Shown here piece after piece: positions 1 to 64,000 of a DNA stretch of 64,000 nt. The stretch is taken from assembly GCA_964016885.1 (NCBI GenBank), contig OZ024741.1, positions 343,046,001 to 343,110,000 of the forward strand. Reading direction: 5' to 3'. Origin of the DNA: Eledone cirrhosa (lineage: Eukaryota). Every line of letters starts with the position of its first letter. The first letter of the stretch is position 1. A model generated the notes under the pieces. It ran no database searches. It was not told where the DNA came from and worked only from the letters and a program-made list of their open reading frames with translations. Made by a program: the position numbers and the translations under genes.

Positions 1-87
1 AAATCACTATCCGGATGACTTCCAAAAACAATGGTTGCATTTTAATAGGGTACGTCAAAGCTTATTTGTAAAACTGTTATATATTGT

Positions 88-150
88 ATTTTGTCTGATG
101 AAGGCATACCATAATTTAATTTGGTATCCCTGAAATATGTATAATGAAAT
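88..150 (+). ncRNA. Type I hammerhead ribozyme motif (minimal, Penelope-type)
   Basis: CTGATGA 95-101; stem II agg-c-atacca/tggtat-c-cct; GAAA 132-135; short stem III t-atgt-a; AUA triplet 141-143; stem I attttgt/atgaaat with two G-U pairs; AATAAA follows, then a tail into (TA)n at 283. Confidence 0.6.
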
Positions 151-279
151 AAATATGGTTTTATAAATATAGTTTCCATTTATTAATATCGTATATCTAC
201 TCCAAATACTTGTCGAGTGCTTTATATTAGTTATAAAAATATTTACTTGTTGTATCCCAACAATTTTAAATAGAACTTT

Positions 280-1112: not shown

Positions 1113-1536
1113 TATATATATAATTAAGGTTTAGCAAATAAGAAAAAGTTTCAAAATAAATTTCAAAAAAACATTCATTCATTCCACATCATTCATTCTC
1201 ATCTCGGGAACAGTTTTGAATAGCGCCAGTTCGTAATTTGAACTCGGGAATGTTATGTTCTTCGAGTGAAAAGAACCTTCTGACGAGAGTTTATCTTTTC
1301 AATGGAAGGCCGCAAGGACTGTCCATTTATTTTTGAGACTCGAAACCGATTCGGTAAAGGTAACCATAGTGAGTACAGTGAATTTTTTGAAATTTATTTT
1401 GAAACTTTTTCTTATTTGTTAAACCTTCATTATATATGTTCTGGCTCGTTAATTTATTAACCTGCCATTGAACCACATTGGCATATGGTTGGACAATACA
1501 TGTGTCCCTTAGCGCCTTGTGCGTGTAGGAATATAT

Positions 1537-1540
<4 letters not shown>
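1113..1540 (+). mobile_element. Non-coding fold-back Penelope-like/retrozyme-like element
   Basis: Inverted arms about 1117-1177 and 1379-1437 enclose a hammerhead; unique 3' tail ends at (TA)n. Confidence 0.7.
1275..1361 (+). ncRNA. Type I hammerhead ribozyme, canonical core
   Basis: Stem I acctt(1275-79)/aaggt(1357-61); CTGACGA 1280-86; stem II gagt/actc with long insert; GAAA 1342-45; stem III ccg-att-cgg; GUA cleavage triplet 1354-56. Confidence 0.85.
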
Positions 1541-1588
<48 letters not shown>

Positions 1589-3334: not shown

Positions 3335-3872
3335 GCGTATATGCTGGTTGTTTGCCGATACCTCAGTATGCAGATTGGAACACTCCACGAAGTACGCAGG
3401 TTGGTTTGTTGACTCCGGTGTAATGTAAAATAATTAAGTCAAATAGGTAAAAATTTGGCTTCGTTTATTATAAATTATAGATATACTGCTATATATATCT
3501 CGGTGACAGCCATGATTGGCTGTGACCTCTTCAGGCAGTCCGAATTGGTGTGGTGGAGACAAGTGCACATGTTGTTTAAGTGTGTTTTACTCCGTCAATA
3601 CATCGATATGTCCAGCTCCTGGTTGCGTTGTTATTTCTCTGAGGAGATTCCAGTTCCTCAGGGAAATAAAAACGCAACCAGGAGCTGGACATATCGGAGT
3701 ATTGACGGAGTAAAACACACTTAAACAACATGTGTACTTGTCTCTACCACACCAATTCGGACTGCCTGAAGACGTCACAGCCAATGATGGCTGTCACCGA
3801 GATATATATAGCAGTATATCTATAAGTTATAATAAACGAAGCCAAATTTTTACCTATTTGACTTAATTATTT
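3335..3872 (-). mobile_element. Fold-back element with two inverted hammerhead-like motifs
   Basis: Arms about 3427-3645 and 3655-3872; motif actgc-CTGAAGA-stem II-GAGA-tatata-TA-gcagt at 3761-3815 (+) and 3485-3539 (-); 3' tail on minus strand 3335-3426. Confidence 0.75.
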
Positions 3873-10084: not shown

Positions 10085-10623
10085 AGAAGTGTGCTTAACC
10101 AAACAGAGAGAGAGAGAGGAAAGAACAGTCTTTCCTCTCTCTCTGTCTGGTTGAGCACACTTTGAGTGGTTTGGGGGCTGCCCTTTCTAGCACCTCGTCC
10201 CCCAGACACCACCGGTTCACTGCCCTAAACACGCTGTGACATCTCTCTGCCGCGTGTAGCTGGACGGTCCCTTTAGATTCTCTTAGAGTTGTCTGAAATG
10301 TATAGTCTTGCACGCGCTGATGAGTCATAGGCGATTCCATTTCAGTCAACAACTTCCTGGCGAAACAGATGTCTTTGGATTTGTACGCGTGTATTATATA
10401 GTTATAGAGGTGCGTATATACATTTTAATATTTATTTTTAATTATTGTGTGTCTACCCTGCCTTCCATAGATTATAGACTCCATACACTGGTGGTTTTCC
10501 CTGTCTTATTGATGGCGCACTATCTCTCTCTAGTGTGTTACCCTTTCAACAGATTGTATTTTAAAGAGCTCAGGATTCCTTTTCCTTTGAGCACATTATT
10601 GACAGGGAATAACGAGAGTCTGA

Positions 10624-22186: not shown

Positions 22187-23111
<925 letters not shown>

Positions 23112-32079: not shown

Positions 32080-34552
32080 TCATATTATTTTCAGAGTTTC
32101 TTTTTTGAAATCCGGGACCTTGCGATGATGAGCTTCAACTACTTGAAGAACACGCTGCTTCTCCTCCTCATTCTTGGTGATGGCAACAAAATCAGTTATC
32201 AACTTGACTGCTCTCTCCGCCAGATCGTTGACTACCTTGATATTGTGAACAACAGCACAGTATTTTGATATGACGCTTGTGATGACCAAGTTGCAAGTTA
32301 CAGTTCAAGCCAAGTATCGTCGAGACCAAGGAGATCGAACAGAAGCCTTGATTTCTTCCCAACTAGATGAAGCAGCTTCGTGGACGACTTCAACTCGGGA
32401 AATACTGGAGCACCACGGTCGAGAGGCCCAGACGTTTTCGTTTTGACAAGACGTTGGGTTCTTTGTTTCTTCTCGGACTCTTGGACCCGACTTGAAAACA
32501 GCGCTAGCGGAATGGCTTCCTCCGTCAGGTACCAAAGATGCCTGATCAGAGCAGTAGTGGCTGCCTGCGAGAGATCTCTGTCAACCTTACTGTACTGTGT
32601 CAACTCCACGTAGAATTGAAGGTCATTGGATGGTGCATCAGCACACTTGACTGCTGTCAACCAGTATCGCACGTAGAACAGAGCATTGAACATACAGATC
32701 CGGCGCAACTTTTCCATTTTAGCTTGATCTTTGCCCTATAGATGATTGTGGACATCCACCGAGCGTTATGATGTGCACCAGGCAGCATCCAATGTATTCC
32801 ACGAGGAGAGGTGACACCAAGCAAGATCAACATCAACTCAGCACATTCTCGGTAGTCGTCCCGTGGAAGAGAACTCATTTTCCCATCGTCGTTGATGTTC
32901 CCAGAACACAGACGCTTGAATCTCCGGTCGACAATGTTCAATGTTTTAAAGTTGGTCTTGTCCGTAAGTGACACCCAATCTTTTTTGAACTGCTTGAGCT
33001 CTGGGGTGTCTGGAGTGGACATTGTTCCGAATAGTTGTTGCCACACTGCACACAAGATACGCTCCATGACATGGTGCCGACAAGCCAAATAAAACACCTT
33101 TTTGTTGAGCCTCTCTTCTAGTTTCACGCAGGCACAATTTTTCCATCCAGAATTCGAAGCAGTTGTGTCAAAGACCAAGCCCACCACAGACCGATCAACA
33201 TTCTAAACTTGAACAAGATCAAATGGTGCTTTGGCTTGGGTGTTTCCAGTGCCATCAGGAATTATGGGAACACCGAGGAGTTTACCTTCTCTGAAGTCCG
33301 GAGTTCCAGCAAATAGCACACCTAACCTCTCGTGGTCACCAGGAATTATTTTGCCATCCCAATGCAAGGTAACAAAGCCTGGTACAGCAAATTGTTCCTT
33401 TATGTGTTCAGCCCACACAATTCTGATCTTCTTAGCTGCACGTCTGCTACTATTCTTGGAGAGAGTTGTGGCGTCTATGTCAGTCCCACCCTCAGAAATA
33501 ATCGATGCCATAAATGCTGTTTTCTGGCCTAGTGTCAGGTTTAAACGATCAGCCATTAGAGAAAACTTTGGACTTTGAAATGGATTCTTTGGGAGTTCCA
33601 GCTGGATTTTTAGTTTCTTGTCTGACTTTGAGCTGTCTCTGGGTGGGTTTGAGGCCTGAAATTCAGGATCCTGTTCATCATCAGTTTCATCATTGGTTGA
33701 ATTTGAATCACTCAGTTCATTACCTGGAAGTTGTGCTGCTACAGATCCTGACAAACGCTTTCTATGGTTTTCTGACTCCCGACGAGCCACAGAAACCTGA
33801 TCACGCTTAAACTTTGAAGATAGCTTTTCTGGTAACCATTGTCTTCAGCACCCAGAGATACTTTTGTCTGGCAACGCAGGGCTTCAAGAAATGTAGCATC
33901 TTCCATTTTCTGTTCATTATTACGAAGAGCAGTGGATTGGCAGTATCAGTAGAGGGTCGGACGCCATGCTTTCCAGCATAGTTACGTCATTTTACGATCT
34001 GAGTTCAAATCCCGCCGAGGTTGACTTTGCCTTTCATCCTTACGGGGTCGATAAAATAAAGTACCAGTAATGCACTGGGTAATTTCTGGCCTTGTGCCTA
34101 AAGTAGAAACAATTATTACGAAGACGGTCTTTCAAAATTTTCTTTTCAGCATCAGTATGTACAATGTAGAAATACTAATCCAATTCAGAAATAAATAGTG
34201 CTTCCTTTTCTTTGTTTGACTTAGAACCTTTGTTTTTTTGTAAATTTCTGTATTCCCTGTACATGTTCATAATTTTCAGTTTCACTTTGTCTTTTCGTTG
34301 AGTCGCCACACCAGCTTTTTCCCACTGACTAACTACTTCCATCACAAGCCTATCCGCAATAACACCATTGAAGCTCACATGCTTTTCGTGTTTCATAGGA
34401 CCATCTTTCAGGTAGAAGAAATATCTTAGAATATCCCCCTTTGTTGGTATTTTGTTTGGCGAAAAGGATGTAACATATTACCCCAGGAACCATATTTCTC
34501 GATCATCACAACGGAGCGAGTAGCTACAACTAGGCCCACTGGTTTCCGCCAT
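32080..34552 (-). pseudogene. Transposase pseudogene (stops, frameshifts, SINE insertion)
   Basis: Collinear ORF pieces 34175-34396, 33203-33790, 32657-33187, 32298-32717, 32080-32289. Confidence 0.85.
33929..34111 (+). mobile_element. SINE family A inserted in the transposase
   Basis: Perfect 13-bp TSD attattacgaaga at 33916-28 / 34112-24. Confidence 0.93.
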
Positions 34553-34722
34553 ATTCTGCCAATTTGCAACTATTAAGCAAGGCTTAAATTAGTCGGAAAT
34601 AATCAAAATTACATTATAAATTGATAATATACAAAATGGCATGAGAAAATGCATAGGGAGTTAAGAAAAAAACACACTTTTGTGTAAAATGTGAGATTCT
34701 GGAACACCCTATAACACACCCA

Positions 34723-35698
34723 TACGTGTAATGTATACGGATACCAAATCAACTGTCCTGACCCCAGATAGGGAAACACCACCTTTCTCAACCCTCGCTG
34801 GAATTTTACAGGGCGATACCCTTGCTCCGTATCTATTTATCATTGTTATGGATTATGTTTTGCGCATGTCTGTGGATAGGATTCAGGATAGGGGATACCA
34901 ACTACAGCCTAGGAGAAGCTCACGCTACCCAGCAAAATACTTGACCGACACCGACTTTGCTGACGACATCGCATTGATCACTCGGTCACTGGAAAATGCT
35001 GAGAGTCTTTTGAAGTCATTAGAGCAAGCGTCCAACTGTGTTGGACTGTACCTCAACGAATCCAAGACTGAGTGTTTGAACAGATGCGCAAACAGCCCAA
35101 ACTACCCCATCAGAACCCTTAATGGTACCACCCTTAAGCAGGTGGAAGATTACAAGTATCTTGGCTCATATATCTCCTCCTCCAAAAAGATTTTCTAACC
35201 AGGAAGGGTATGGCATGGTCAGCGTGCAATGACATGCACGCCATATGGACATCTCAACTTACCAACAAGCTAAAACTGGAAATATTCCAAGCAACCATTA
35301 AGCCCATATTACTTTATGGATCCGAAACTTGGACACTAACATCACAACTTGAGAGGAGATTGGATGGCACATATACCCGCCTCTTAATGAGAGTGCAAAA
35401 CCTATCCTGGAAACGACATCCCACCTAAAATCTATGGCAAACTCCCTCAAGCCTCTGCCCTTCTAAAATCCCGGAGAGCTCAATTTGCTGGCCACTGTCA
35501 CCGTGCCAGCAATGAAATAATATCCGCTCTCTTGACTCCAGCCTGACTAGGAGTAGGAAGCTGTCATTCCCTGACGTTATCTCTAGGGATACGGGAATCA
35601 GCAGACAGGACCTGGGGGAAGCGATGGGGGACAGGGGATTCTGGGGCATGAGAGTGAGATCCATCATCTCGACAGTAGTCGACGAGTGATGATGATGA
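34723..35698 (+). mobile_element. 5'-truncated RTE-clade LINE (RT C-terminal half)
   Basis: GILQGDTLAPYLF, DFADDIAL, YKYLGS, LLYGSETWTL; (GAT)n tail; 11-bp TSD taacacaccca at 34712 / 35699. Confidence 0.92.
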
Positions 35699-61199: not shown

Positions 61200-64000
61200 G
61201 GTTTGTTAAGTAACTTGTTATTTGTTTTGTTTAACCCCTCGCCTGGGTCTGCAGACGTTGGGTAAAATAAATTTGTCTATGAAAAGTCGTTTAGTGATAA
61301 TGGATTCCATTAATACATCGCATACGACATATGCCACATCTCCCCGCCCCAAGGAAAGTGATAGAGAGAAGGTAGCAGCACAACGCTCTAAGCCTTCCCT
61401 CCTCACTCCCGCAAAAGACACCATGAACACGGAATTAAAAGAAAAATTTGTGGAAATGGGTGCAAACCCCAAAAGTTACAATTACGCAAACAAGAACAAC
61501 AATGACAATAACAACACAACCAACAACAGCAATAATGACAACACTAACAAAGGAAAAAATGAAGTCAACACGAATAACAACAACAACAATGATAACAACA
61601 ATAAGACCAAAGAAAACGGACCCACAACTGGAGTCTCCTTCGCACAGGCGTTTCGAGAAACATAAACATACAAGGCACTGAATATCTCAAATGCCAAGGA
61701 ATTGCTAAAAGAAGCAAGAAATTGTGTAACTTTCGGGGAAGGTGGGGAATTTACAATTACCTCCCCACAAGAAATTAGAGGAGACACAGTCCTGAGAACC
61801 ATAACCTTCAGGACAATTTACAACACAACTAGGAAACTGGCTCAATTATCCAAAAGCGAAATTGAGCTGGTCCTAAATAGTGCATGGAAAGATATCGCTT
61901 TCATACAGAAAGGGAAACTGTATGGAAGCATATCTGTTTTAATGAAAGATCAATTGGCGGCACGGAAATATTCTGTGTCGCCAATTGTATCCAAATCATA
62001 CACCTTTTTCCCCACATATTTGGGGGAAAAGAACACAAAAGATAAGAATCTCGGGCATCAGGCCAAATGCGAGCATTTGGTGGGTGCTAACAGGATTCTT
62101 AGAAGATGAGGACACAATCCTTTCGATAGTCGAGTCCACCGGGGGCGTATTCGGCGGCAATAGCCTTGAAGTTCTGGTCCAAATGAGACCAGAACGGATA
62201 GCAAGAATACCGCAGCGTGTGTCCGTGGACGGAGTCGCCTTCATAAACATTTATGTTGAGGGCAGGCGGCCTTCATGCTACCACTATTCAAGAAGTGGTC
62301 ACCTGAGGACTTCCTGTCCTCGTTTAAATGCCCCCCCCACCCTTAAAAAAGACGCTTCTGCCCACCCCACACACAACAACACAACCACCACCACCACCAC
62401 CACCACCACCACCACCACCACCACCACCACAAACACAACAACACAAGACACTGTACCACCCAACCCCTCCCCACCTAAAGCAAATACAAAAGCACCCTCA
62501 ACCACAACAAAACCTCAAAATATACCCCTCCCCAACAACACGGACGAGGACCCCTTATCAACTTCACCCAGTGACGACGAGGGAGAACCCTTTCAACCAG
62601 TAAAAAGAAAGAAAAGAAGGCACCATATTAACCACCAGCACAAACAGAACAAACATCAGAAACAAAAACCACCCCTCCCGAAAACATAACACATACTACA
62701 AAACGCAAACACACAGAAGAACAACAAACAAAAACAAACACAGCACAACAAAAACAGTATACATACATCAACAGAAACAACAAAATACTTGTACAATCAA
62801 TAGACAAAGACCCTTCGGTGGAAACCGAAGGGAAAACGTTCACCAACGCGGCGAATAAACCGCATTTAAAAATGATTAGGGTCCCAAGGGACACCTACGC
62901 AATGCTCAAACAAAACTTTCCCGAGGACGTGGGGAACCCCTGTAATAGACCTACCAACCGCGTCTTTTTGAAATGTTTCCCCACCACCACCCCAGACACC
63001 CCTTCCCCACCAAACACCCGCACCCCACCACACACTGATTCCTCACCACATCCCAAACCACCACCCCACCAAACAACCCCTCCAACAAACACCCCCATGG
63101 AAATTGTGCAGACTGGTCCCCAGGAGAAGGAGAGGTAGGTGTCTTTTCCTTTTCTCCACTTTAACTCTTCACCACCAACATGGCTGTTATAAGAGTTGTA
63201 TGTTTAAATGTGCGCGGCCTGGGGATGTCCTGGAAGCAGGGCAAACTCTTAAATGACCTCAGGTCGCACAGAATGGATGTATTAGCTATTTGCGAGTCCA
63301 GGATCAGAAGCGAGCACCAACTGGCCCCCATCTTCGACGACTTTGACATCTATGCATCTCTCTGTCAGCCGGGGGGTGGAGGTGGGGTTGTCGTTCTGCT
63401 TCGAAAACACCTGGGCTTCGCAACACGGAAGGTACACCTGGACCCGGAGGGTCGATTGGTGGTTCTAGACGTCGGCAGTAGTGAAAGTGGAGCCTTCAGG
63501 CTGGTGGGAACGTATGCCCCATCTGGGACACCGCGACCGGACTTCTTCCAACGTCTAGAGACTTTTCTGGGAACGCCCCGCTCCTTGCTTTTAGTGGAGG
63601 ACTGGAATGGTATCCTGGATGCACATTGGCACTATGTAGGGGCATGTCCCGATAGAGGGGAGTGTAACAGCCTCAAACGGTTAATCGGCCGATTTGACCT
63701 GGCCGATAGATATCGACTAGATTTTCCGACTGTGCCACTGTGGACGTGAACTAATCGTAAAGGAACATCTAGGTCGTACCTAGATAGGATCCTAGTTAAA
63801 ATTAAGGATAGGGACATATTAAACTGTCCACGAATGTTTATGGTTGACTATTCAGATCACAAGTTACTGATCTGCGTAGTCAACCTTGATAGAACCCATA
63901 GACAGAGACCCGGTTACTGGAAGCTAAATTTGTCCTTACCGACAAACAAAGCTTACAGTAAACGGATTAGCACTTTAGTTAAGCAGGGGTTGACGGGGGC
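61200..64000 (+). mobile_element. 5' part of a Tx1/L1-clade LINE, running off the window end
   Basis: Frameshifted ORF1 with degenerate zinc knuckle CYHYSRSGHLRTSCP; ORF2 APE endonuclease follows. Confidence 0.85.
63180..64000 (+). pseudogene. LINE ORF2 APE endonuclease domain with in-frame stop
   Basis: LNVRGL, DVLAICES, GGVVVLL, EDWN, TGA at 63747, then in frame SYLDRILV, YSDH, PGYWKLNLSL. Confidence 0.88.

Follow-up and report, generated by a model that had tools for sequence, protein, structure and literature searches.

The window analyzed here, an AT-rich and microsatellite-dense stretch of 64,000 nucleotides of animal-like DNA from Eledone cirrhosa, carries on its forward strand at 1275-1361 a type I hammerhead motif with an intact core and a GUA triplet, as found by sequence inspection and with a descriptor (strict setting: stems of at least 5, 4 and 4 bp). 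Stem I is formed by ACCUU (1275-1279) and AAGGU (1357-1361), and is followed by the catalytic CUGACGA (1280-1286). The base of stem II pairs GAGUUU (1287-1292) with AGACUC (1336-1341) in six base pairs including one G-U, after which come the core GAAA (1342-1345) and stem III with its triplet (1345-1356). The sequence-only reading of this DNA had placed these elements correctly, and both inspection and descriptor confirm them at their positions. CUGANGA, GAAA and NUH thus meet in a three-way junction with stem I open, the arrangement of a type I hammerhead. The motif is not expected by chance: 100 block-wise dinucleotide shuffles gave no strict match and a mean of 0.03 loose matches per window. 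Folded in isolation, positions 1265-1375 have an unremarkable energy (z of -0.81) and a minimum-energy fold other than the hammerhead. Since the segment folds no better than shuffles, the case for a hammerhead rests on the motif and on comparison. In an alignment of 31 copies of the surrounding repeat, two of the five pairs of stem I and five of the six at the base of stem II have changed on both sides, and the four pairs of stem III are invariant. On these sequence grounds the hammerhead likely cleaves itself after A1356.

Stem II is unusually built. Its 55 nt comprise the 6-bp base, an internal loop (1293-1300 and 1328-1335) and a distal hairpin (1301-1327) with the pairing AAUGGA (1301-1306) to UCCAUU (1322-1327) and the apical CC-GCAA-GG (1310-1317), both of which had been pointed out earlier. 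The proposal of a structured insert holds as to the extension; its size of about 47 nt, however, takes only four of the six base pairs as belonging to the base. The distal hairpin is kept among paralogues, at least 6 bp being predicted in 137 of 147 distinct copies. The GCAA cap (1312-1315) turned out to be incidental: the same 147 copies are capped by GCUU (30), GCAA (25), GUAU (23) and others, and we rejected a GNRA cap as a key feature with only 28 of them carrying one. Stem III is the self-complementary ACCG-AUU-CGGU (1345-1355), interrupted by a central U-U. Self-complementarity with at most one mismatch recurs in 136 of 149 distinct copies, the center varying between GAUUC, GAUC, GUAC, GCGC and GC. 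The suggested capacity to dimerize is supported because stem III stays self-complementary through compensating changes, and dimeric cleavage is, judging from these sequences, likely possible. The window copy may nevertheless not require it, since its 4-bp stem III is predicted to fold as a stable monomer hairpin (-2.0 kcal/mol). It is therefore not a minimal Penelope-type hammerhead, the class with which it had been compared and in which stem III is absent or 1-2 bp long and a dimer is required; copies of subfamilies C-F have no stable monomer hairpin in stem III and would fit that class.

Rfam returned no hammerhead match to the motif, either at the gathering score or at E values up to 10, so that the forecast that standard models would miss it is borne out for Rfam at two thresholds. 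The 55-nt stem II is the likely cause. A tight pattern gave 2,137 matches in the 3.0-Gb assembly and none in the reversed control, a variant pattern 524 and none. Pattern scans found no match in viral contigs and, in metagenome contigs, a single chance match without stem I. A wider pattern for other hammerheads with a long stem II gave 9,783 matches in the same genome (e.g., L092-L099, L107, L112-L120) against 315 in controls, or about 9,500 above control. One large family among them keeps GAGUCAGG within a stem II of about 60 nt and has no clear complement to it in the 5' flank. A natural hammerhead architecture that is invisible to Rfam is thus added, and ribozyme-bearing repeats in animal genomes are likely undercounted because this architecture escapes Rfam.

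Other features of the window deserve mention. The same descriptor finds three further hammerheads with intact cores at 87-151 (+), 10309-10393 (+) and 18972-18925 (-), which belong to other repeat families and have stems II of 30, 38 and 13 nt, respectively. Another repeat forms an inverted pair at 3545-3800. Its core reads CUGAAGA, GAAA is replaced by GAGA, and it is probably what remains of a hammerhead that has decayed; an intact relative is present in locus L031. A long inverted repeat of yet another family (1779-2296, 92% self-match) has an end resembling the sequence just downstream of the predicted cut after A1356. Open-frame fragments at 22334-23111 and 32298-33844 presumably derive from a mariner-type transposase and another DNA transposase, and those at 34695-35198 and 61210-63749 from what we take to be reverse transcriptase (RT) and LINE ORF1/endonuclease sequences.

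The hammerhead belongs to a head-to-tail repeat with a unit of about 486 nt (482-491; 527 in one subfamily), whose subfamilies have diverged to a pairwise identity as low as 0.49 (49-55%). A search with 1180-1440 brought up 2,907 first-look candidates in the genome, of which 40 were scored, with at least 49 matches at 96-100% identity. Among sequencing runs, none of RNA was found to contain the repeat; three contig runs of one sample contain the stretch and several subfamilies, but these may be its source and carry no information on expression. The copy in the window is a 5'-truncated, partial solo copy at 1182-1543 (+) with one hammerhead and 0.75 unit. Numbered from the cut site, it runs from unit positions 312-486 on into 1-187. 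Its single hammerhead and incomplete unit make a dead-end insertion the most likely interpretation. Folded as circles, all five units examined were more stable than their shuffles (z of -2.4 to -7.0, 25 shuffles each), with 58-64% of bases paired at a GC content of 0.32-0.40. At the level of the family, the repeat resembles retrozymes in that its units, a few hundred bases long, lie in tandem, each carry a type I hammerhead, are highly self-paired and remain below 50% GC. Open frames span the units, which have no match to the Penelope-like protein compared (1,278 aa). ARAGORN found no tRNA at five loci and there is therefore no sign of a tRNA-derived SINE head. Folding predicts a hairpin upstream of the ribozyme (1242-1267), with a similar one in most subfamilies inspected, and, in related copies, a long hairpin downstream of the cut (1357-1427). 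At its far end, a second ACCUU (1423-1427) could capture the 3' strand of stem I, a possible off-switch according to these models.

The most informative part of stem II is its internal loop. The conserved portion of the insert is the pyrimidine strand UCUUUUC (1294-1300), which pairs with the A-rich tract GAAAAGA (1268-1274) in the 5' flank of stem I, and this partner falls outside the coordinates that the sequence-only reading had assigned to the ribozyme. Across subfamilies the 6-bp pairing of 1268-1273 with 1295-1300 is conserved, three of its six pairs having changed on both sides. In the unfitted MAFFT alignment of 31 copies chosen across subfamilies, the helix is 91.8% paired with three of seven pairs changed on both sides. 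Sliding the partners of the whole structure by one to three columns lowers pairing in this alignment from 87.5% to 31-60%; subfamily D lies one column out of register in the distal hairpin, which lowers the value for that helix. Flank and loop occur as four complementary haplotypes (GAAAAG/CUUUUC, GAGAAG/CUUCUC, GAGAAA/UUUCUC and GGAAAA/UUUUCC). Among 136 distinct copies with an intact core the commonest combinations are GAAAAG/CUUUUC (26), GAGAAG/CUUCUC (25) and GGAAAA/UUUUCC (11), alongside the one-mismatch combinations GAAAAG/CUUUGC (24) and GAGAAG/CUGCUC (8). Even between subfamilies whose stems differ in sequence, the loop partner begins at the same distance of 7 nt into stem II.

Since the pattern used to collect some loci fixed purines and pyrimidines in these very columns, the covariation test was repeated without the pattern-derived loci. 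It retained 98 of 116 copies, 18 being dropped for short or simple-repeat flanks or for want of an anchor. Position 2 is then AU in 48 and GC in 20 copies, position 3 AU in 67 and GC in 25, and position 6 GC in 74 and AU in 10; 87% of cells are Watson-Crick and three pairs are compensated. Simulations in which the columns evolved independently, under a simple substitution model written for this analysis, did not reach both measures in any of 3,000 runs at each of four rate settings (98 copies, masked tree), nor in any of 3,000 at each of three settings for 129 rows. These simulations and the four haplotypes argue against the view that flank and loop are complementary merely because they are A-rich and U-rich tracts of common descent, with the insert a neutral hairpin. 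That view can draw on the small number of independent events, the two-sided changes amounting to only about three or four on the tree. Certain lineages have also become fixed for one-sided breaks: subfamily B has A-G at position 2 (22 of the 98 copies), A-G is found at position 4 in nine of the 98, and CUUUAA occurs among copies of subfamily A. Per-sequence shuffle tests gave values under 0.05 for only four of the 31 copies. We consider this view highly improbable. Stem II was absent from the structure drawn by RNAalifold, which cannot represent pseudoknots; the program placed a 3-bp hairpin in the 5' flank, and this too would account for the change at position 2. We rejected that hairpin as a replacement for the pseudoknot, since it covers one of the three compensated sites and is in competition with the upstream hairpin predicted by folding.

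The covariation thus links the stem I region with the stem II region, as a tertiary contact would, and the pseudoknot likely replaces the usual contact between loops I and II. Taken together, we consider it quite probable that this high-copy, apparently protein-free repeat of about 486 nt carries an intact type I hammerhead that likely cleaves itself, with its fold likely held by the pseudoknot. From the energies of its parts, a knotted fold is plausible: the hammerhead fold computed without the pseudoknot lies 1.7-4.3 kcal/mol above the minimum (1.7 for 1236-1365), and the 8-bp flank-loop helix, taken as a duplex, yields -6.6 kcal/mol.

The same calculations feed a different explanation, in which the flank-loop helix is real and serves as a folding switch instead of a support. 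It would form first during transcription and trap an inactive nested fold, the downstream ACCUU would capture the 3' strand of stem I, and the RNA would remain mostly uncut, with multimers serving as the template. Indeed, the fold of lowest energy is an inactive, nested one that sequesters the core and is built on this very 8-bp helix, folding of several subfamilies predicts a further match to stem I downstream, and unprocessed RNA was the main substrate of a Penelope-like element tested in vitro, according to the accessible part of that study (PMC11167929). However, the spacing kept across subfamilies (a stem I of 5 bp and a partner 7 nt into stem II) and its fit to stems I and II lying side by side favor a support, and a near-identical insertion of 8.8 units, described below, is simpler to derive from a circle. 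We therefore regard the switch as unlikely, and keep the supporting pseudoknot as the preferred reading.

More tentatively, a further layer may be built upon this pseudoknot. The 3' strand of the internal loop (1328-1334), a candidate third strand, is rich in U (fraction 0.78 against 0.37 for the unit) and may add a triple helix resembling that of an ENE: the A-rich tract would pair with one loop strand while the other strand would read it through C.G-C triples and Hoogsteen U.A-U triples. The conservation of U in this strand is suggestive, and its U run corresponds approximately to the A run in the flank; in subfamily D, GGAAAA, UUUUCC and CUUUU could form a single C.G-C triple and four U.A-U triples. 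The first base is a G in both E and F, and a U faces a G-C pair in many copies of subfamily C. As in ENEs, a U-rich internal loop lies between two helices and would capture an A-rich strand; that strand is here an internal tract 5' of stem I and not a 3' poly(A) or 3' end. A natural hammerhead with stems I and II clamped by an ENE-like major-groove triple helix is, on these sequence features, conceivable but somewhat doubtful. If true, a ribozyme would contain a module for stability, which may also protect the cut unit at its 3' end until circularization, and it would represent one of several families of long-stem-II hammerheads missed by Rfam-type searches. Naturally occurring compensating variants provide ready controls for the effect of the pseudoknot or triple helix on cleavage.

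The way in which copies are inserted bears on how the repeat moves. We mapped the distinct insertions, 29 in number, at the top 30 loci; these are the best-scoring of the 2,907 candidates, and the sample leans to long and young copies for that reason. Of these best-scoring insertions, 26 of 29 have (TA)n at the 3' end and 19 of 29 an inverted 5' piece. Their 3' ends lie at two positions relative to the cut site, 13 near +80 and 16 near +185; the latter include L020, a secondary fragment belonging to an insertion whose main copy has its end at +81. The other subfamilies show ends at similar positions. The window copy displays the same anatomy, with an inverted 5' piece at 1116-1170 (-) that copies 1383-1437 (unit positions 27-81; 55-nt arms, 96% complementary) and a (TA)n microsatellite, the preferred target by sequence and insertion mapping, at 1541-1594. 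The longest insertion, in L138, consists of 8.8 units in which neighbors are 99.8-100% identical, compared with 93.8-98.8% to units of three other insertions, and this array sits between (TA)n runs and also has an inverted 5' piece. 5' truncation, inverted 5' pieces, partial tandems, (TA)n targets and fixed 3' ends are all marks of Penelope mobilization, and the Penelope connection drawn from the sequence is borne out in this respect. Its setting was nevertheless misjudged: the hammerhead resides in an apparently protein-free, retrozyme-like tandem unit and not in a pLTR beside an open reading frame.

In this study, we propose that the element is likely a non-LTR retrozyme moved by Penelope-type machinery. 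A tandem copy would be transcribed and two hammerheads would cut out one unit, as for non-LTR retrozymes, which a host ligase would close into a circle. The RT/GIY-YIG endonuclease of an autonomous Penelope-like element would nick (TA)n, priming would start some 80 or 190 nt past the cut, and copying round the circle would yield insertions of 0.5 to 8.8 units with variable and often inverted 5' ends. Because copies read through the cut site, we infer that the template is a circle or an uncut multimer, the circle being the simpler of the two. The fixed 3' ends, the inverted 5' pieces and the 8.8-unit array are thus footprints of retrozyme movement, and they lend support to the idea, already in print, of a circular template copied by Penelope-type machinery.

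A candidate helper is present in the genome. A very young Penelope-like family has at least 139 scored matches at 98-100% identity, an open reading frame of 1,278 aa and both tandem and inverted copies, and is possibly the helper of the repeat. One locus, L191 (G000:C3:66544000-66553900), holds an autonomous element with a 1,278-aa frame for RT and a C-terminal endonuclease-like part, a tandem period of 4,286 bp and a short hammerhead preceding the frame. Its C-terminal part has 40,899 first-look candidates in the genome; a Pfam search assigned no significant family to the C-terminal 278 aa of the protein. As a parent of the repeat this active element was rejected, having no meaningful sequence in common with the units. 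Pieces of Penelope frames also lie beside four copies of the repeat, and two of them, when read to their 3' end, have short hammerheads of their own; these pieces were dismissed as parts of the element because they are separate insertions beyond the (TA)n runs. The repeat itself has no RT plus GIY-YIG frame between pLTRs, as an autonomous Penelope-like element would.

A descent from such an element could also account for the unit, which would then be an internally deleted Penelope-like element made of two pLTR halves, with the hammerhead a weak, dimer-only passenger and the long stem II serving protein binding or splicing instead of catalysis. The insertion anatomy and the palindromic stem III are in line with this, as is the poor in vitro cleavage of Penelope hammerheads in the accessible text of PMC4209133. 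So is a word resembling a 5' splice site just past the cut site. In the window it is GUGAGU at 1369-1374, 12 nt beyond the cut, and such words follow the cut in 119 of 150 copies, a raw count without a background rate. Introns occur in Penelope pLTRs. Against a deleted Penelope-like element stand the lack of any frame remnant matching the Penelope-like protein compared, the conservation of unit length and fold at about 50% identity and the foldable 4-bp stem III of the window copy, which together make this origin rather improbable in our view. The non-LTR retrozyme thus remains our preferred assignment.

As far as the available texts of the sources allow, the repeat can be placed among known systems. 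Metazoan non-LTR retrozymes were defined by Cervera and de la Pena (2020; PMC7229834), the circle-template model is stated in PMC7761336, and a derivation of non-LTR retrozymes from Penelope-like elements is argued by Li et al. (2026; preprint 10.64898/2026.07.22.740005), so that the retrozyme-Penelope link is not new; the accessible part of that preprint does not mention molluscs, pseudoknots or stem II. With the retrozymes described there our repeat shares short tandem units of less than 50% GC with one type I hammerhead each, thousands of copies, solo and multimer insertions and co-occurring Penelope-like elements. Its unit of 482-527 nt exceeds the 150-450 bp of PMC7229834 and falls within the 51-972 bp of the preprint. 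The difference lies in stem II, which measures 49-58 nt in the repeat in contrast to a 4-bp stem and a short loop, and in the predicted pseudoknot where retrozymes have the usual loop-loop contact; a circular RNA of the repeat is here a prediction.

Penelope-like elements offer the second comparison, their minimal hammerheads being described in PMC4209133 and their insertion anatomy, with a 'half core' in cephalopod Naiads, in PMC8557442. The accessible parts of both report type I hammerheads with a palindromic stem III region and insertions with partial tandems, inverted 5' pieces and (TA)n targets, as in our repeat, whereas the latter is not minimal, has no RT/GIY-YIG frame in its unit and has a far longer stem II. 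The Naiad 'half core' was rejected as the same motif, its sequence as given there differing by eye. In the two cephalopod Naiad consensus 3' ends of the supplement seen, GAAAC lies upstream of CUGAUGA with flanks that appear complementary by eye; from its sequence, what was called a 'half core' may instead represent a hammerhead in permuted form (type II or III).

The transposon ENEs and those of KSHV PAN and MALAT1, as covered in the accessible part of PMC13541005, likewise combine a U-rich internal loop with an A-rich strand on one side, whereas the A-rich strand of the repeat is internal, lies 5' of the loop and is part of a ribozyme, and its triples are candidates only. In the literature covered, in partial texts and with subscription papers mostly outside its scope, neither this internal-loop architecture nor a hammerhead with an ENE-like loop is described. 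The closest precedent is provided by pseudoknots that replace the loop contact in hammerheads (Perreault et al., 2011; PMC3088659). According to the available text, these occur in all three types, the pseudoknot was needed for fast cleavage in the case tested, the stems II described are short and a repetitive type I class was excluded from two analyses. Those pseudoknots and the one proposed here alike connect the regions of stems I and II through a Watson-Crick helix. In Eledone, however, the helix lies in a high-copy repeat of an animal genome, and its partner strand belongs to a U-rich internal loop that a distal hairpin of about 27 nt closes off. What would be new, with the support of covariation in the sequences, is thus a tertiary architecture, the ribozyme and the class of elements both being known.
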